A stretch of DNA of 5,852 nt, taken from a virus. Lineage: Duplodnaviria; Heunggongvirae; Uroviricota; Caudoviricetes. Position numbers and translations under genes: made by a program. Location of the stretch: the IMG/VR virus record IMGVR_UViG_2698536408_000010; one strand, given 5' to 3'. The notes below the pieces were generated by a model. That model made no database searches and was not told the origin of the DNA. It was given only the letters and a program-made list of their open reading frames with translations. Shown here one piece after another: positions 3 to 5,852 of the stretch (position 1 is the stretch's first letter; the number at the start of each line of letters is the position of its first letter).

Positions 3-417
3 CAGTATCCGGATGGTAAGCCGCCGGTATGGGCAAAGTGTACGAAAGGTGTGTATCCGTCTTACTGGGAAGAATGGAAAAAAGTCAGGGAGGTGGTAAA
101 AGTTGCCTGTCCGGAGTGTGGCGGAAAGGGTGAGGTTTCCACCGCCTGTAAGGATTGCCGTGGGCGTGGTGTCGCCATTCATCGTGAAGAGTCGGTAAAA
201 CGTGGTATGCCTGTTATCAGAGACTGCCAGCGTTGTGGTGGTCGTGGCTATGAAAGACTACCATCAACGGAGGCATTTAATGCTATATGCGAGGTGACAA
301 ACCAGATAACACGCGCGTCATGGGAAAAAACAGTTAAGAAATTCTATGATGCGCTGGTGACTCGGTTTGATATTGAAGAAGCATGGGCTGAGCGGCAGTT
401 AAAAAAGGTAACTAGGT
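3..417 (+). CDS. Cys-rich zinc-finger protein with three CxxCxGxG (DnaJ-type) motifs; partial (open at window start, 3' end lost in N run); positional candidate for lambdoid late antiterminator Q
   Basis: The frame is open from nt 3 with no upstream stop, so the ORF is 5'-truncated. Translation contains ACPECGGKG, CKDCRGRG and CQRCGGRG. It is followed by an intrinsic terminator, then a methyltransferase and a tRNA-Ile/tRNA-Arg cluster, as downstream of Q in Stx-type phages. The tail after the N run (GRFMPDVRR...) reads through the terminator and is not counted. Confidence 0.5.
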
Positions 418-459
418 NNNNNNNNNNNNNNNNNNNNNNNNNNNNNNNNNNNNNNNNNN
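418..459. other. Assembly gap or masked bases (42 N)
   Basis: Run of n characters; hides the 3' end of the first ORF and any promoter immediately downstream. Confidence 0.95.
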
Positions 460-497
460 ATGGGCGTTTTATGCCTGACGTTAGAAGAGTTTCTACA

Positions 498-520
498 ACC
501 CGCCGCCGAGCGGGTTTTTT
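498..520 (+). terminator. Rho-independent terminator (stem acccgc/gcgggt, 6-nt loop, T6 tract)
   Basis: Perfect 6-bp GC-rich stem 498-503/510-515 followed by tttttt (515-520). Confidence 0.7.
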
Positions 521-640
521 ATGACTGAAATCGCGTCAGTACAGTAAACGCGCTGGTGGCGGTGAATACCTGTCTTTCAGCTTGCTGGCTTTTTCGACAA
601 GAGTTATTGGTGTGTCACGTTAACCGGAAAAGGAAAAGAC

Positions 641-988: not shown

Positions 989-2047
989 ATGCTTAATACT
1001 GTAAAAATATCCAGTTGTGAGTTAATCAACGCCGACTGCCTGGAATTTATCCGGTCGTTACCCGAAAATTCTGTTGACCTGATAGTCACGGACCCGCCGT
1101 ACTTTAAAGTGAAGCCTGAGGGCTGGGATAACCAGTGGAAGGGCGACGATGATTACCTGAAGTGGCTGGACCAGTGTCTGGCGCAGTTCTGGCGGGTGCT
1201 GAAACCTGCCGGAAGTCTTTACCTGTTCTGTGGTCATCGCCTGGCATCTGATATCGAAATCATGATGCGTGAACGCTTCAGTGTGCTGAACCATATTATC
1301 TGGGCGAAGCCGTCCGGACGCTGGAACGGATGCAACAAGGAAAGCCTGCGGGCGTATTTCCCCGCCACAGAGCGCATTCTGTTCGCGGAACATTATCAGG
1401 GGCCGTATCGTCCGAAAGATGCCGGGTATGCGGCGAAGGGCAGTGCACTGAAACAGCATGTGATGGCCCCGCTGATTTCTTACTTTCGTGATGCGCGAGC
1501 TGCCCTGGGGATAACGGCAAAACAGATTGCAGATGCCACAGGAAAGAAAAACATGGTGTCGCACTGGTTCAGTGCCGGTCAGTGGCAGTTGCCGAATGAA
1601 AGCGATTATCTGAAATTACAGGCGCTGTTTGCCCGGGTGGCAGAAGAGAAGCATCGGCGTGGTGAACTGGAAAAGCTCCACCACCAGCTGGTGGATACGT
1701 ATACCTCACTGAACCGGCAGTATGCGGAGCTGCTGAGTGAATATAAACATCTGCGGCGGTATTTTGGCGTGACGGTGCAGGTGCCGTATACCGATGTGTG
1801 GACGCATAAACCGGTGCAGTTCTATCCCGGGAAACATCCGTGCGAAAAACCGGCAGAAATGCTGCAGCAGATAATCAGCGCTAGCAGTCGTCCGGGTGAC
1901 CTGATTGCAGATTTTTTCATGGGGTTGGGTTCGACAGTGAAAGCGGCACTGGCGCTCGGGCGTCGTGCAATTGGCGTTGAGCTGGAGACTGAACGTTTTG
2001 AGCAGACGGTTCGGGAAGTACAGGATTTAGTCAGCCAGAACGGATGA
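989..2047 (+). CDS. Beta-class (motif IV before motif I) N6-adenine DNA methyltransferase, CcrM/HinfI-like, apparently orphan
   Basis: DPPY motif at aa 35-38 (nt 1091-1102) after NADCLEF...LPENSVDLIVTDPPY; C-terminal HPCEKPAEMLQQIISASSRPGDLIADFFMGLGST (HPxxKP plus FxGxG AdoMet motif I). 352-aa ORF. Start codon uncertain (weak SD before ATG 989). No restriction endonuclease gene nearby. Confidence 0.85.
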   Translation: MLNTVKISSCELINADCLEFIRSLPENSVDLIVTDPPYFKVKPEGWDNQWKGDDDYLKWLDQCLAQFWRVLKPAGSLYLFCGHRLASDIEIMMRERFSVLNHIIWAKPSGRWNGCNKESLRAYFPATERILFAEHYQGPYRPKDAGYAAKGSALKQHVMAPLISYFRDARAALGITAKQIADATGKKNMVSHWFSAGQWQLPNESDYLKLQALFARVAEEKHRRGELEKLHHQLVDTYTSLNRQYAELLSEYKHLRRYFGVTVQVPYTDVWTHKPVQFYPGKHPCEKPAEMLQQIISASSRPGDLIADFFMGLGSTVKAALALGRRAIGVELETERFEQTVREVQDLVSQNG

Positions 2048-2087: not shown

Positions 2088-2163
2088 GGCCCTTTAGCTC
2101 AGTGGTGAGAGCGAGCGACTCATAATCGCCAGGTCGCTGGTTCAAATCCAGCAAGGGCCACCA
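2088..2163 (+). tRNA. ileZ: tRNA-Ile2 (anticodon CAU, lysidine type; ileX/ileZ-like), 76 nt with encoded CCA
   Basis: Cloverleaf: acceptor GGCCCTT/AAGGGCC, D-arm GCTC..GAGC, anticodon loop CTCATAA, T-loop TTCAAAT, 3' ACCA. Close to E. coli ileX as recalled from memory. Met versus Ile2 cannot be distinguished from the anticodon alone. Confidence 0.85.
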
Positions 2164-2263
2164 TCACAAACCGCCATTAGCTTATCAGGAAGAGCAGACG
2201 ACACGATAACAGGGTTGTTGGTGCGGGGGCGGGTCCCCGATGGCGGTCCATTATCGGTATTCA

Positions 2264-2340
2264 GCGTTGTTAGCTCAGCCGGACAGAGCAATTGCCTTCT
2301 AAGCAATCGGTCACTGGTTCGAATCCAGTACAACGCGCCA
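2264..2340 (+). tRNA. tRNA-Arg (anticodon UCU, reads AGA/AGG), 77 nt with encoded CCA
   Basis: Acceptor GCGTTGT/ACAACGC, D-arm GCTC..GAGC, anticodon stem ATTGC/GCAAT with loop CTTCTAA, T-loop TTCGAAT, discriminator G then CCA. Confidence 0.88.
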
Positions 2341-2380: not shown

Positions 2381-2598
2381 AAATGTCTCACAATTCAGAC
2401 GGTTGACAGTTGTCTGTTTTGCGGGGAGTTTGTTAAAAGAAACTGGCATGGTGAATCCCCCTGTGCGGAGGGGCAATCAGCGAGTAGGTATATGGGATAA
2501 TCGCGGATTCAGGTGCTGGTACTGAATTCACCGGGAGGCACCCGGCATCATGCAATGGCACATAGCGCCACTCTCCAGCCCTCTCCGGAGGGGCTTTT
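2376..2598 (+). repeat. R1: ~220-bp structured noncoding module, copy 1 (near-identical to 4836-5060)
   Basis: Shares about 215 bp with copy 2, with about 5 differences. Contains TTGACA (2403-2408), several short GC stems (cccct..agggg, ccggg..cccgg) and a terminal hairpin ccctc/gaggg followed by tttt (2579-2598). Small ORFs inside do not keep frame between copies. Confidence 0.75.
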
Positions 2599-2827
2599 CT
2601 GTGCCGGATACATCACAGTTTCTGGAACCTTAGGTACTACAGTATCAGTCAGGGTGCTATATTTTCAGATGTGATGAAAGCCTGTCAGCAGGCAGGGCGT
2701 ATCGGAAATGACCCAGTAGAGAAAACGTTGACTCAGATACCGGTGCTGAGTTACCGGGAAACCGGCATCACATGACCGCTATCCTGAGGTGTACTGGCAA
2801 TAGCGGACACTACCATTTGTTCTTTTT

Positions 2828-3646
2828 TTAAGCAGCCATCTGATGATATTTTTCCCTGAAGGCTGCCGGGGAGATATTCCCCAGACGAGAGTGACGACGC
2901 TGACGATTGTAGAAAATCTCAATGTATTCCCGTATTACTGAGATGGCTTCATCCCGGTTATTAAAACGATAGTGGCTCAGGCTCTCATTTTTCAGCGTTC
3001 CCCAGAAGCTTTCCATCGGAGCGTTGTCGTAACAGTTACCTTTACGCGACATTGATGTTTTCAGACCAGACTGCTCCTGTATGACCCGGTAATCGTATGC
3101 GCAGTACTGTGAACCTCGATCAGAGTGGTGGATTAGCCCGGCAGGTGGGCGCTGGCTCCTGAGCGCCATAAACAGGGCTTTACCTGTCAGCTCTTTTGTC
3201 ATGCGCTCTCCCATGGCGTAGCCGACAATTTCGCACGTATAAACATCTTTGATGCCAGCGAGGTACAACCATCCCTCCTGTGTGGCAACATACGTCAGGT
3301 CCGCCACCCAGACCTGATTTGGTGCTGTAGGAGCGAACGTCTGGTTCAGCAGATTTGGCGCAACTGGCAGATTGTGGTTCGAGTTCGTAGTCGCTCTGAA
3401 CTTGCGTTTCTGCTTACAGCGTAGCCTTAGCTCCTTACGAAGACGTGCCAGTCGGTCACGACCAACGATGATGCCATTCTCTGCCAGCTCCGTCTGGAGC
3501 CGCCGGGTTCCATATGTTTCGCGAGTGCGGATATGTGCCACCTTAATCTCCAGTTTTAGCCGCTCATCACTTTGTTTTCTGTCTGAGGGTTCATGCTGTA
3601 CCCAGTTGTAATAACCGCTCCTGGATACACCAAATACCTGACACAT
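2828..3646 (-). CDS. IS3-family transposase OrfB (DDE integrase catalytic domain); in vivo made as OrfAB by -1 frameshift
   Basis: 272-aa ORF with HHSDRGSQY, MSRKGNCYDNAPMESFW and YNRQRRHSRLGNISP motifs typical of IS3-family OrfB. The frame stays open upstream to the slippery site near 3727-3733. Confidence 0.9.
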   Translation of the reverse strand: MCQVFGVSRSGYYNWVQHEPSDRKQSDERLKLEIKVAHIRTRETYGTRRLQTELAENGIIVGRDRLARLRKELRLRCKQKRKFRATTNSNHNLPVAPNLLNQTFAPTAPNQVWVADLTYVATQEGWLYLAGIKDVYTCEIVGYAMGERMTKELTGKALFMALRSQRPPAGLIHHSDRGSQYCAYDYRVIQEQSGLKTSMSRKGNCYDNAPMESFWGTLKNESLSHYRFNNRDEAISVIREYIEIFYNRQRRHSRLGNISPAAFREKYHQMAA

Positions 3647-3681
3647 CGCTTCAATGGGAAATTGTTGTCGCCATTGTTCGA

Positions 3682-3912
3682 TTAACGCGTATTTTTCAGC
3701 GACTCCTGTGCAAAATACGCTGTTGCTTTTTTTAATATATCTCGCTCAAGGCGAGCTTCATTTAACGCCTTACGCAGTTGCAGAATTTCAGATTCCAGTT
3801 CAGCCACCGTGCGGGAACCAGGAGTACCGAGCCCTTTTCTGGCGGCGGTAACCCATTGTCCTAAAGTGCCTTCAGGAAGAGATAATCGGGAAGCGCCTTC
3901 ACTGATCGAAAG
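3682..3912 (-). CDS. IS3-family transposase OrfA (HTH/leucine-zipper part), N-terminus lost in N run
   Basis: Translation ...TVAELESEILQLRKALNEARLERDILKKATAYFAQESLKNTR resembles IS911-type OrfA C-terminus. The tracked ORF extends through the Ns into antisense tRNA sequence, which is artefactual. Confidence 0.75.
   Translation of the reverse strand, partial: LSISEGASRLSLPEGTLGQWVTAARKGLGTPGSRTVAELESEILQLRKALNEARLERDILKKATAYFAQESLKNTR
3727..3733 (-). other. Programmed -1 ribosomal frameshift heptamer A_AAA_AAA linking OrfA and OrfB
   Basis: Seven T on + strand (seven A on coding strand) in the OrfA frame within ...DILKKATAYF; shifting -1 here joins onto ...LIEQWRQQFPIEAMCQVFGVSRSGYYNW. Confidence 0.6.
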
Positions 3913-3923
3913 NNNNNNNNNNN
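3913..3923. other. Assembly gap or masked bases (11 N)
   Basis: Run of n; IS sequence on one side, tRNA-flanking sequence on the other, so true adjacency is unknown. Confidence 0.95.
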
Positions 3924-3929
3924 GCTCCC

Positions 3930-4005
3930 GGCCCTTTAGCTCAGTGGTGAGAGCGAGCGACTCATAATCGCCAGGTCGCTGGTTCAAATCCAGCAAGGGC
4001 CACCA
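3930..4005 (+). tRNA. ileZ: tRNA-Ile2 (CAU), second copy, identical to 2088-2163
   Basis: Same 76-nt sequence as copy 1, including 6 nt of upstream flank (gctccc). Confidence 0.85.
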
Positions 4006-4105
4006 TCACAAACCGCCATTAGCTTATCAGGAAGAGCAGACGACACGATAACAGGGTTGTTGGTGCGGGGGCGGGTCCCCGATGGCGGTCCATTATCGGT
4101 ATTCA

Positions 4106-4182
4106 GCGTTGTTAGCTCAGCCGGACAGAGCAATTGCCTTCTAAGCAATCGGTCACTGGTTCGAATCCAGTACAGCGCGCCA
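4106..4182 (+). tRNA. tRNA-Arg (UCU), second copy, one substitution in acceptor stem
   Basis: Identical to 2264-2340 except A to G at 4175 (versus 2333), making a U4-G69 wobble; downstream flank differs and has no terminator. Confidence 0.85.
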
Positions 4183-4292
4183 TATTCATTCTTCCAGATT
4201 CCTTCCGGCAGAGCCTTATACTGAAATATACCTGGCTCAGGATATTGTTGAAAATATTTTATGTTTGTCAAAAATAAAAGTTCTGTTAAGTA

Positions 4293-4646
4293 TTGATTGA
4301 GTGTTTGTTATACGGTCTAATGGTTTTTTCAGCATTAAATATTTATCATTCATATGGTGTGGGTAGAGTGAATATTGATGAGGCGTCGGGGTGTTTCATC
4401 CTTAGGCAGCGTATTGATATAGTCAATGCAGCACGAGCAAAGGCCTTCAGCCGTTTGACAGTTTTGTTCTGTACTCCTGATCGTCTTTCGGGAAGAGACG
4501 TTATTATTCTGAATAGTGATGCTATACAGAGGGTTTGCGATGAGTTCATGGTTGCTAATTCAGAATTATTTGCTCTTGTTCAGGAGTACAACAGAATAGC
4601 CAGGACCTGTGGTATGGATGAACTTCGGATTACTCATCTGGGGTAG
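4293..4646 (+). CDS. Hypothetical protein (up to 117 aa), AT-rich cargo gene rich in AGA/AGG/ATA codons
   Basis: A 354-nt open frame in AT-rich DNA is unlikely by chance. 6 of 11 Arg codons are AGA/AGG and 3 Ile codons are ATA. Start is uncertain (TTG 4293, ATG 4320 or GTG 4367) and no clear SD is present. No family recognised. Confidence 0.45.
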   Translation: MIECLLYGLMVFSALNIYHSYGVGRVNIDEASGCFILRQRIDIVNAARAKAFSRLTVLFCTPDRLSGRDVIILNSDAIQRVCDEFMVANSELFALVQEYNRIARTCGMDELRITHLG

Positions 4647-4726
4647 ATACATATCTGGATTATCACCTGTTACGGTAAAAAGTGATTGCTTACTGTTTTT
4701 GTGAATGGCATTGCAGCAGCCGGATA

Positions 4727-4813
4727 ATGTCAGTGCTGGCTGACGGTGTGCTGGTGGCGGGTGTGGTGGTTGTTGCTTTCCCGTTGCTGAAAAAGAAAAC
4801 GCCAGACTGTTAG
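4727..4813 (+). CDS. Possible small hydrophobic peptide (28 aa, MSVLADGVLVAGVVVVAFPLLKKKTPDC)
   Basis: ATG-initiated ORF with a single predicted TM-like segment and KKK tail; GC-rich island within AT-rich DNA; weak SD (gga 3-5 nt upstream). Could also be a gene remnant. Confidence 0.25.
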   Translation: MSVLADGVLVAGVVVVAFPLLKKKTPDC

Positions 4814-4835
4814 CCGGGTATCAGTTAGCGGGAGA

Positions 4836-5060
4836 AATTTTTAAATACTTCACAATTCAGGCGGTTGACTGTTGTCTGGTTTGCGGGGAGTTTGTTAAAA
4901 GAAACTGGCATGGTGAATCCCCCTGTGCGGAGGGGCAATCAGCGAGTAGGTATATGGGATAATCGCGGATTCAGGTGCTGGTACTGAATTCACCGGGAGG
5001 CACCCGGCACCATGCAATGGCACATAGCGCCACTCTCCAGCCCCTCTCCGGAGGGGCTGT
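4836..5060 (+). repeat. R2: ~220-bp structured noncoding module, copy 2 (near-identical to 2376-2598)
   Basis: Same module as R1 with TTGACT in place of TTGACA and one extra C in the terminal hairpin (7-bp stem gcccctc/gaggggc, 5040-5057). Confidence 0.75.
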
Positions 5061-5076
5061 TTATATTGATTTTGTC
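5040..5076 (+). terminator. Terminator-like hairpin at the end of R2
   Basis: 7-bp GC stem with tccg loop followed by tgtttatattgattttg (T-rich but interrupted). Confidence 0.5.
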
Positions 5077-5090
5077 AGATGTGAGTAAAC

Positions 5091-5124
5091 TCCTTATGGA
5101 CTTTGTTGTTTTAGTCCATAAGGA
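5091..5124. other. Perfect 12-bp inverted repeat spanning the stop codon of the minus-strand 111-aa ORF
   Basis: tccttatggact (5091-5102) pairs with agtccataagga (5113-5124), 10-nt loop. It lies between the convergent R2 module and the minus-strand ORF. Confidence 0.5.
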
Positions 5125-5429
5125 CATATTTGCAGAGTGCAACGGTTATTAAAGCATTCATTCAATACGTTATCTGTATTTGTAGGGCATTCCTGGCTAT
5201 TTTTGATTGAATTCCAGAATGTTTTATTGAATGGTACTACGTTGTAAATGGTTACAGGTAGCACTTTGTTATTGAGCATGATGCCTGTGTGAGTCAGTGT
5301 AAATATACTTTCAGGAGGTAAGAAAGCATCCGATTGATACCAGATTATTAATTTTATTTTACTCCATATGACTGAAAAAGATATTCCGCATGATGGCTGG
5401 ATAACTGTATCAATCACAATCCACTTCAT
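5094..5429 (-). CDS. Hypothetical Cys-containing protein (111 aa), AT-rich cargo gene
   Basis: ATG at 5429 (minus) preceded by aaggaaa 5 nt upstream (strong SD). At least six ATA Ile codons. C-terminal region has 5 Cys ([26 protein letters not shown]). No family recognised. Confidence 0.6.
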
Positions 5430-5689
5430 TTAGTTTCCTTGTTTATGCCTTGCTGGTGATGTTCTGAAAAGTATAAATGATATTTTTGAATGTAAACCAT
5501 AGAGCAGAATTATTTTTCTGATGTTGTTTATTGTTTATTTAAATGCAGGGTGGTTTATATCTCGTCTTGTAGTTTATCCATGCATATCTGCTTGATAATC
5601 AGGTTTTTATTTAAGGTATGGTTTTGTGTTTTTTCTGTATTACATGTCAGGTATTTTAAAGAATTATTTTTCAGATGGTGGAAAGAACC

Positions 5690-5816
5690 ATGGCATTTAA
5701 ACACTATGATGTTGTCAGGGCGGCGCCGCCGTCAGATCTTGCGGAAAAGCTGACACATAAACTGAAAGAGGGCTGGCAGCCGTTTGGTAGTCCGGTGGCC
5801 ATAACCCCTTATACCC
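5690..5816 (+). CDS. N-terminal 42 codons of a small lambdoid-prophage protein (MAFKHYDVVRAAPPSDLAEKL..., possibly DUF1737-like), interrupted by IS end
   Basis: ATG 5690 with ggtggaaag SD-like sequence 6 nt upstream. The frame runs without a stop into the IS terminal sequence starting at 5817. The family assignment is from memory and tentative. Confidence 0.55.
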
Positions 5817-5852
5817 TGAGGTGTACTGGCAATAGCGGACACTACCATTTGT
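5817..5852 (-). mobile_element. IS3-family terminal end (second copy of the end seen at 2785-2820), continues beyond window
   Basis: 36 nt identical to 2785-2820 (tgaggtgtactggcaatagcggacactaccatttgt), same orientation. Confidence 0.8.

Follow-up and report, generated by a model that had tools for sequence, protein, structure and literature searches.

An AT-rich accessory segment of a lambdoid prophage late region corresponds to the described iraL locus and carries a gene for an uncharacterised 92-residue protein

Overview of the locus

The AT-rich stretch between positions 4183 and 5690 of the window (the whole viral DNA analysed here, 5,852 nucleotides long) is the already described iraL locus of lambdoid prophages of Escherichia coli and Shigella. 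Its contents are iraL, whose small product protects RpoS, the stress sigma factor, against degradation, a known phage small RNA (sRNA) gene, a known tiny membrane peptide, and a real, uncharacterised phage protein of 92 residues. Novelty is limited to the gene for the latter, the remainder of the locus being known already. The locus as a whole offers little that is new, and serves as an example of prophages retuning the general stress response of their host. An earlier note, made from the letters alone, had proposed a candidate novel moron at this place. Its description of the DNA, including the ORF coordinates, the AT-richness, the rare-codon counts, the strong Shine-Dalgarno sequence and the R2 repeat, agreed with our analysis throughout, and accessory cargo in a lambdoid late region is indeed present; however, the novelty did not hold, as iraL, STnc100 and DUF3927 are known.

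There is little doubt that positions 4183-5690 represent an accessory-gene slot among the late genes of a lambdoid prophage and are essentially the iraL locus of the phi-potB prophage of the uropathogenic E. coli (UPEC) strain CFT073. Positions 3924-5819 were 98.1% identical to that prophage, and the stretch 4183-5690 was found at full length with at least 99% identity in many E. coli chromosomes; at least 80% of it was contained in 863 genomes. At the matching E. coli loci, PGAP calls DUF3927, IraM and DUF1737. The GC content of the stretch is 39.4% versus 51.3% for positions 1-2087, with a minimum of 29.5-32.5% around and upstream of the minus-strand ORF 5094-5429. AT-richness together with rare codons is the usual mark of horizontally acquired DNA. 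Features of the slot and its flanks are listed in Table 1.

Table 1. Features assigned in and around the accessory segment, in order of position
Feature	Position	Strand	Evidence
IS3-family insertion sequence between the two tRNA/STnc100 modules	2783..3923	-	orfB vs NCBIfam transpos_IS3, 332 bits
tRNA-Ile2 type gene (anticodon CAT), second copy in window	3930..4005	+	ARAGORN; Rfam tRNA, 72.5 bits
tRNA-Arg gene (anticodon TCT), second copy in window	4106..4182	+	ARAGORN; Rfam
Gene for 92-aa protein, PHROG 2873, GTG start	4368..4646	+	dN/dS; homologues; start sites; AlphaFold; phrog_2873
DUF3927 small hydrophobic protein, 43 aa (GTG) or 28 aa (ATG 4727)	4682..4813	+	Pfam PF13064; phrog_1470; PGAP
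STnc100 prophage sRNA gene ("R2 module")	4879..5068	+	Rfam RF02076; terminator
iraL, RssB anti-adaptor, IraM paralogue	5094..5429	-	NCBIfam NF007393; CFT073 identity; PDB 8TWD
iraL promoter and 33-nt 5' UTR	5430..5496	-	CFT073 5' RACE; hexamers
nanS-p type esterase gene, N-terminal DUF1737 part (prophage backbone)	5690..5814	+	Pfam PF08410, E = 1e-15

A cargo position shared with Shiga toxin phages

The slot is flanked by the phage tRNA genes on one side and by the nanS-p and lysis genes on the other, and its cargo occupies the position of stx, as the earlier note had stated with respect to Stx phages. In the Stx2c phage 1717 the order is tRNAs, stx2A/B, STnc100, a convergent iraM-family gene, nanS-p and holin, and in the Shigella phage 75/02 it is stx1AB, STnc100 and nanS-p. 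The order in the window is the same as in these two phages, with the cargo placed between the tRNAs downstream of Q and a block of STnc100, nanS-p (DUF1737) and holin. The locus also illustrates that the frame of this slot in lambdoid phages is fixed (tRNAs, cargo, STnc100, an optional convergent iraM-family gene, and nanS-p), with different cargos swapped into it. The iraM-family gene of Stx2c and Stx2a phages (e.g., phage 1717 gp43) has the same position and orientation as iraL in the window, convergent and between STnc100 and nanS-p; however, its product shares 73% amino acid identity, which makes it a third subtype, and the cargo upstream of it is stx2AB rather than the 92-aa gene and DUF3927.

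The closest known relative is the CFT073 locus itself, which shares the lambdoid prophage setting, the neighbours (tRNAs, DUF3927, STnc100 and DUF1737), the promoter hexamers and the mapped 5' end. Differences were also observed: two tRNA-Arg genes precede the cassette in CFT073 and only one does so here, and the cassette of the window is bracketed by IS3-family elements, with a second tRNA/STnc100 module upstream.

iraL and its expected effect on RpoS

Neither of the two larger ORFs had been assigned to a known family from the sequence alone, which does not apply to the minus-strand ORF, a clear homologue of genes of known function. The 111-aa product, preceded by an AAGGA Shine-Dalgarno sequence 6 nt 5' of the ATG, scored 162 bits with the NCBIfam model NF007393 (IraM; cut-off 121) with residues 1-110 covered, and matched the IraM structure PDB 8TWD with E = 3.3e-30. 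Compared with CFT073 iraL, 334 of 336 nucleotides and 110 of 111 amino acids are identical, whereas K-12 iraM shares 228 of 336 nucleotides (68%) and 60% amino acid identity over 106 residues. The operational definition of the iraL subtype asks for a full-CDS nucleotide identity of at least 95% to CFT073 iraL and for no overlap with iraM, and published identities between iraL and iraM are 67% for nucleotides and 58.9% for amino acids (PMC4045071); by this definition, the counts given above place the gene in the iraL subtype.

Experiments have shown that CFT073 IraL stabilises RpoS by acting as an anti-adaptor of RssB (Hryckowian et al. 2014, mBio, PMC4045071), and both RssB binding and a longer half-life of sigma-S were reported for the genes of CFT073 and Shigella sonnei (PMC4045071). 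From the 99% identical CFT073 gene, we infer that the product encoded in the window also stabilises RpoS via RssB. By match to CFT073, transcription of iraL would start at 5462, with a -10 hexamer TATACT at 5475-5470 and a -35-like hexamer TTTACA at 5496-5491, both the same as in CFT073, and the published 5' RACE sequence of CFT073 iraL agrees with the window at 31 of 32 positions. CFT073 iraL and its upstream DNA differ from those of the window in residue 74 (L instead of S) and in two single bases, of which one immediately precedes the transcription start and the other belongs to the 5' UTR. In a lysogen, iraL would be read from this sigma-70 type promoter of its own, and the product would bind the adaptor RssB; because IraL-bound RssB cannot pass RpoS to the ClpXP protease, RpoS would build up even during exponential growth. 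The importance of the gene would lie in this increase of RpoS in growing cells and in its link to uropathogenic and Shigella isolates.

K-12 IraM (YcgW), the anti-adaptor of Mg2+ starvation, whose N-terminal domain is the structure in PDB 8TWD, belongs to the same family (NF007393) as IraL of the window; all of its C-terminal cysteines are conserved and the general mechanism, inhibition of RssB, is shared. On the other hand, it is a different subtype with different regulation, a different mode of RssB interaction has been reported (PMC4045071), and its gene is sited beside the e14 prophage, where the annotated neighbours include no such phage tRNA genes.

STnc100 and DUF3927

The other parts of the slot, which had also gone unrecognised at first, belong to established families. 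The R2 repeat (positions 4825-5043, 94% identical to 2363-2581) reflects two copies of the prophage sRNA STnc100 in the window, which reached 132.4 bits (4879-5068) and 123.6 bits (2417-2606) against an Rfam RF02076 threshold of 47. The copy in the slot matches the full model (1-206) and ends in an intrinsic terminator at 5038-5068, consisting of a hairpin with a T tract. In EDL933, transcription of other family members has been observed, in one case with confirmation by Northern blot, and a transcript of about 190 nt is predicted for the present copy, which marks the downstream border of the cargo slot. The family is reported to be related to PasD. A site in the prophage late region fits the preprint of Zhu, Shabalina and Storz, and agrees with a paper on outer membrane vesicles (OMV) of STEC, in which STnc100 lies 75 nt downstream of stx2B. 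A further paper, on the prophage sRNA HnrS, was examined and had no relevance to the locus.

The 28-aa hydrophobic ORF at 4727-4813 is nested in a 43-aa ORF with a GTG start, whose product scored 95.6 bits with the Pfam model of DUF3927 (cut-off 25); PGAP annotates WP_000562553.1 at this position in matching loci. The peptide also matched phrog_1470, labelled "TciB-like", with E = 7.8e-13. A literature search for TciA, TciB and DUF3927 returned unrelated papers only, and no experiment was found to which the "TciB" label goes back.

A conserved phage gene missed by annotation

The plus-strand ORF at 4293-4646 encodes 117 aa from a TTG start. An open frame of this length is present, as the earlier note had given it, but the coding sequence that is supported is shorter: the product most likely comprises 92 aa from the GTG at 4368, and the first 25 codons (4293-4367) are probably an untranslated 5' leader that happens to be in frame. 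In relatives of 91-99 aa, the start codon is found at the equivalent position and is preceded by GGAG, AGGGA or AAGGA as Shine-Dalgarno sequence, and one homologue (L021, from E. coli) has no alternative start upstream.

The frame could in principle have arisen by chance in an AT-rich leader that connects the tRNAs with DUF3927, and the missing PGAP call would then be accounted for. It is unannotated in the RefSeq records of E. coli 042 and CFT073 and in the phage record mEp460_ev081, Pfam and NCBIfam give no family for it, its in-frame starts are only TTG, GTG or a non-conserved ATG with weak Shine-Dalgarno sequences, and a weak terminator-like hairpin lies within it at 4482-4500. Such an origin is nevertheless very unlikely, given that comparison of the 4368-4646 frame with four homologues yielded a dN/dS of 0.22-0.33, as opposed to about 1 for the two shifted frames, that the 92-aa product matched phrog_2873 over 92 of 92 residues with E = 5.6e-58, and that its AlphaFold model reached a pLDDT of 88.5. 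Homologues were detected in six enterobacterial genera, and those in Citrobacter, Salmonella, Morganella, Serratia and Xenorhabdus are full-length (20-40% identity at the lowest) with proper starts and Shine-Dalgarno sequences. A narrower alignment among species representatives yielded only three loci with the gene. The dN/dS values and the homologues indicate a real gene under purifying selection, and the lack of its annotation in the E. coli records examined represents a concrete annotation gap.

The ORF thus has a family, PHROG 2873, contrary to what had first been assumed. Like PHROG 4827, this is an uncharacterised and nameless group of phage proteins with neither a Pfam nor an NCBIfam model, and it is matched end to end by the 92-aa product. 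Searches of Pfam, NCBIfam and PADLOC with the protein gave no match, and a profile search of PDB sequences gave insignificant matches only, the best being GapR/UPF0335 (E = 0.11). The model predicts a soluble protein folded as an antiparallel hairpin of two helices (H3-34 and H50-81), which may act by binding another protein. The gene lies between Q and holin on the late strand in seven of the nine contexts examined, a position conserved in prophages of several Enterobacterales genera, and would be read together with the tRNAs and the late transcript. It is possible, and we put this forward tentatively, that the product is an expressed accessory protein overlooked by annotation, which takes the place of stx as first cargo gene behind the tRNAs in the present lineage and has a novel host-directed function (e.g., binding and modulating a host regulator, in parallel to IraL). 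Two narrower proposals were rejected. A role as a second, IraP-related anti-adaptor found no support from hhalign (probability 0.5%, 9 aligned columns), and an obligatory partnership with the YdeO-like AraC regulator seen upstream in two E. coli variants was dismissed because neither the window nor the contexts from Citrobacter, Salmonella, Morganella and Serratia contain this regulator.

A different view is that the 92-aa gene and DUF3927 are the decaying, non-functional remnant of a larger module made up of the 92-aa gene, a TerB-like gene and DUF3927. At L021 (E. coli) and L008 (Citrobacter), the two are separated by a TerB-like gene (141-165 aa), and DUF3927 has 50 aa there and overlaps the stop codon of the TerB-like gene; in the window, only 35 nt separate the 92-aa ORF from DUF3927, whose N-terminal part differs. 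Decay nevertheless seems doubtful, as CFT073 and E. coli 042 contain intact, near-identical versions of both ORFs, intact gene calls of 108-118 aa corresponding to the plus-strand ORF are on record with nearly a thousand member sequences, the phage record mEp460_ev081 has the same arrangement, and the 43-aa form of DUF3927 still scores well above the cut-off of its model.

Toxin, effector or defence functions

Hardly any weight can be given to the idea of a new toxin, effector or anti-phage defence module built from the two convergent ORFs, either alone or together with the peptide. It would draw on the presence of stx in this moron slot of related phages, the AT-rich and foreign composition, the full label of the PHROG that includes DUF3927 ([quoted passage not shown]), and the TerB-like gene and DUF3927 that often follow relatives of the 92-aa gene. 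However, one of the two ORFs is iraL, whose product regulates RpoS proteolysis and is not a toxin, and no signature of a toxin or a defence system was detected: no PADLOC model matched any of the three proteins, in a search that covered the 92-aa protein and three relatives as well as IraL and DUF3927 and gave no match at E <= 0.1. In most contexts the 92-aa gene is not accompanied by iraL, and iraM-family genes in turn are found without the 92-aa gene, as in phage 1717; since each occurs alone, they are independent cassettes and not a pair.

Rare codons and the neighbouring tRNA genes

The cargo had further been described as rich in the rare codons decoded by the adjacent tRNAs. The tRNA gene with the CAT anticodon is identical to genes annotated as tRNA-Ile in E. 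coli 042 and CFT073, and tRNA-Ile2 and tRNA-Arg(UCU) are able to decode the rare codons of the cargo. In the plus-strand ORF (4293-4646), AGA and AGG make up 6 of 11 Arg codons and ATA occurs three times, whereas ATA accounts for 6 of 13 Ile codons in iraL. Against assumed E. coli background frequencies of 0.10 (ATA) and 0.07 (AGR), on which the p-values rest, these codons are enriched relative to the E. coli average (binomial p of ~1e-3 and ~4e-5, respectively). Compared with local base composition, expected frequencies are 0.43 for ATA (6/13 observed) and 0.45 for AGR (6/11 observed), with p of ~0.42 in both cases; the rare codons are no commoner than the AT content predicts.

It might be supposed that the tRNA-Ile2 and tRNA-Arg(UCU) genes are retained for efficient translation of iraL and the 92-aa gene, in view of these ATA counts in iraL, the 5-6 AGA or AGG codons among 10-11 Arg codons of the plus-strand ORF (depending on the start), and a tRNA-then-cargo order that recurs in CFT073, E. 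coli 042, mEp460 and the Stx phage 1717. Such a dependence is unlikely. Besides the agreement with base composition, the only Arg codon of iraL is not AGR, and similar usage occurs in genes with no linked tRNAs: K-12 iraM, whose function is established, has ATA in 8 of 18 Ile codons with none of these phage tRNA genes among the features annotated within several kb, and at L021 and L014, two loci without a detected tRNA gene, the homologues of the 92-aa gene have ATA in 3/8 and 4/8 and AGR in 2/8 and 3/6 cases, respectively. The evidence does not show a dedicated coupling between the tRNAs and the cargo.

Insertion sequences at the borders

Similarity to uninterrupted E. coli loci ends at about 2785, close to the IS3-family element that separates the two tRNA/STnc100 modules. 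Another IS3-family copy, oriented like the first, starts at about 5815, where it cuts the nanS-p type gene, and the IS terminus at 2780-2820 recurs at 5812-5852 (repeat D3). As IS3-family copies flank the cassette and the DUF1737 gene is cut, the prophage has been rearranged, and late-operon read-through may have been lost in it.

A known prophage locus with one unannotated gene

The window is drawn from a lambdoid prophage and represents its late-regulatory region, the features of which are collected in the table below. All the features listed in an earlier note for the AT-rich interval at 4183-5690 were confirmed to be present, including its base composition (39.4% GC vs 51.3% in the first 2 kb), the ORF coordinates, the rare-codon counts and the R2 repeat, and that note is a correct description of an already known locus. 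Many E. coli chromosomes contain the whole interval at no less than 99% identity, and 863 genomes include 80% or more of it; the RefSeq labels there read 'DUF3927 family protein', 'hypothetical (pseudo)', 'anti-adapter protein IraM' and 'DUF1737'. Over 3924-5819, the feature order is identical to that in phi-potB, a prophage carried by uropathogenic E. coli strain CFT073 (98.1% identity in the alignment). Of the novel moron with two unrecognised proteins that had been proposed (toxin, effector or defence), the plus ORF stands as a real ORF and is the sole part of the interval without a described function, whereas the minus ORF corresponds to the published anti-adaptor IraL; the repeat and the peptide are a catalogued sRNA and a catalogued DUF. 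What interest the locus retains lies in the unannotated 92-aa gene.

Features of the late-regulatory region in the window
Feature	Position	Strand	Remarks
Q antiterminator	51-524		Pfam Antiterm, E = 7e-32; 3' end of the gene region interrupted by masked N runs (418-459)
Small ORF, 65 aa	641-838	+	Between Q and methylase; weak winged-helix matches (TrmB, E = 0.003); hairpin and T run after it at ~838-850
DNA methyltransferase	989-2047		
tRNA(CAT) and tRNA-Arg(TCT), first pair	2088-2340		
STnc100, first copy	2417-2606		
IS3-family element	~2783-3923		orfB, 332 bits on transpos_IS3; junction with second tRNA pair covered by a masked N run (3913-3923)
Second tRNA pair	3930-4182		
Plus ORF, 117 aa	4293-4646	+	TTG start
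Supported 92-aa product of plus ORF	4368-4646	+	GTG start
Hydrophobic ORF, 28 aa (DUF3927)	4727-4813		
ORF, 42 aa	4895-5023	-	Inside STnc100
Intrinsic terminator	5038-5068		In STnc100
Minus ORF, 111 aa (iraL)	5094-5429	-	AAGGA Shine-Dalgarno
DUF1737 (nanS-p type) gene, start only	from 5690		Cut at ~5815 by second IS end

The anti-adapter gene iraL

Judged by its sequence, the minus ORF is iraL: its product passes the NCBIfam IraM model (162 bits, cut-off 121), matches the solved N-terminal domain of IraM (PDB 8TWD, E = 3e-30), and has diverged from K-12 IraM (60% protein and 68% DNA identity) in agreement with the figures published for IraL vs IraM (58.9% and 67%, respectively; PMC4045071). 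Compared with the CFT073 gene, 334/336 nt and 110/111 aa are identical, and the RACE-mapped 5' end of CFT073 iraL (ACATCACCAGCAAGGCATAAACAAGGAAAC...) was found in the window, which places the transcription start at 5462; TATACT lies 7 nt upstream of this position, and a TTTACA -35-like hexamer is also present, both hexamers as in CFT073. Deletion of iraL in CFT073 lowered sigma-S and halved its log-phase half-life, stability was regained with iraL under its own promoter, and RssB was bound by IraL, whose gene is located in the potB island and is frequent in UPEC and Shigella (Hryckowian et al. 2014, PMC4045071). Because of these published results, a CFT073-type mechanism is predicted with high confidence for IraL in the window: RssB would be sequestered, delivery of RpoS to ClpXP would fail, and the RpoS level would go up in growing cells.

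The rare codons of the two ORFs (AGA/AGG for 6 of 11 Arg codons and three ATA codons in the plus ORF; ATA for 6 of 13 Ile codons in the minus ORF) are unusual vs general E. coli, for which backgrounds of 0.10 (ATA) and 0.07 (AGR) were assumed, and are not in excess for the local base composition (ATA 0.46 observed vs 0.43 expected; AGR 0.55 vs 0.45; p ~0.42 each). A specific dependence on the linked tRNAs, as had been suggested, is unsupported, since K-12 iraM, which lacks these phage tRNA genes among its neighbouring annotated features, has 8/18 ATA, and codon usage is comparable in 92-aa homologues from loci with no detected tRNA gene.

STnc100 and the organization of the cargo slot

The R2 module, a true repeat with 94% identity to 2363-2581, can be assigned to the prophage sRNA STnc100 (Rfam RF02076), the two copies matching the full model with 132 and 124 bits (gathering score 47). 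Other copies of this family have been reported to be transcribed in EDL933, one with a Northern blot, and STnc100 has been located 75 nt beyond stx2B in Stx2 phages; a link to PasD is described in a recent preprint. For the 42-aa ORF, the homologous stretch in both E. coli 042 and CFT073 is entered by PGAP as a pseudogene (partial 'hypothetical protein'); most likely, the sRNA gene has here been miscalled as coding. The hydrophobic peptide matches Pfam DUF3927 (95.6 bits, cut-off 25), for whose 'TciB-like' PHROG label no underlying experiment was found in a literature search. In an STEC prophage of E. coli 07-4299 (NZ_CP027462.1), five STnc100 copies were detected at 3575-3787 and 5547-6526 of the locus, four of them in tandem with ~260 nt spacing, downstream of a YdeO-like regulator and a 92-aa homologue.

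The stx-like position of the cargo was borne out by gene order. In Stx2c phage 1717, the tRNAs are followed by stx2A, stx2B, STnc100, a convergent iraM-family gene (product 73% identical to IraL), nanS-p and the holin, and Shigella phage 75/02 has the order stx1AB, STnc100, nanS-p, whereas the stx place is taken in the window by the 92-aa gene and DUF3927. The phage 1717 locus (4495-4818) and 41 other phage records contain a third subtype of the IraM family, with 71-73% identity to IraL; it occurs in many Stx2a/Stx2c phages, convergent to stx2B and just past STnc100, and is without annotation in most of its phage records.

Both the tRNA pair (98% identical) and STnc100 (94%) occur twice, in 2082-2606 and 3924-5068. 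In effect, the first module is an 'empty' form of the cargo slot, with STnc100 beginning ~76 nt after the tRNAs and no cargo between them. Two same-orientation IS3-family copies (2783-3923; 5815-5852) bracket 3924-5814, which contains a tRNA pair, the 92-aa gene, DUF3927, STnc100, iraL and the truncated DUF1737 gene, and the terminal 41 nt of 2780-2820 are repeated at 5812-5852. The arrangement looks like two prophage late regions joined through an IS, or else like a unit resembling a composite transposon.

The 92-aa gene family

RefSeq does not call the plus ORF in E. coli 042 and CFT073, nor is it called in phage record mEp460_ev081, although carried there at 97.8% identity. Despite this absent annotation, its pattern of substitution marks it as a gene: dN/dS against a 56-59% identical STEC prophage homologue was 0.32 overall and 0.26 for codons 27-117, vs 1.2 and 0.8 in the shifted frames, and three more homologue pairs gave 0.22-0.33. 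Exhaustive and profile searches revealed related proteins, full-length at 91-110 aa, in Citrobacter, Salmonella, Morganella, Serratia and Xenorhabdus, every one labelled 'hypothetical' and none with a Pfam domain. These relatives start at the site homologous to GTG 4368, with a GGAG, AGGGA or AAGGA Shine-Dalgarno; a 63% identical E. coli variant lacks any further in-frame start upstream. As residues 1-23 of the 117-aa form are also disordered in the model and have a dN/dS of 0.64, the supported product is the 92-aa protein. The ORF itself is genuine and conserved, and its sole catalogue entry is a PHROG without an assigned function.

In seven of the nine contexts examined, the window included, the family gene lies on the late strand between the Q antiterminator, whether or not joined by a methylase and tRNAs, and the holin. 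It is followed by a TerB-like gene and DUF3927 in Citrobacter and an E. coli prophage variant (L021); one further copy was found in Xenorhabdus, within a Mu-like tail module, and one on a probable E. coli plasmid, adjoining a fimbrial operon. Since no universal partner gene exists among these contexts, the 92-aa gene is read as an independent accessory cassette. Our best guess is that it encodes a soluble protein-binding modulator, which would be read out together with the tRNAs and the late operon.

Two E. coli prophage variants carry a YdeO/GadX-like AraC-family regulator of 241-242 aa directly before the 92-aa homologue (L005, 164-889; L021, 4142-4870), with YdeO as its top NCBIfam match (E = 4e-35, under the cut-off); it may be akin to the prophage acid-resistance/T3SS regulators PsrA, PsrB and PatE. 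In E. coli contigs (L011-L013) that look plasmid-borne (Rep3 replication gene, integrase), a 91-aa member with 34% identity is located at 5001-5276, beside a PapB-regulated K88-like fimbrial operon and outside any phage late region.
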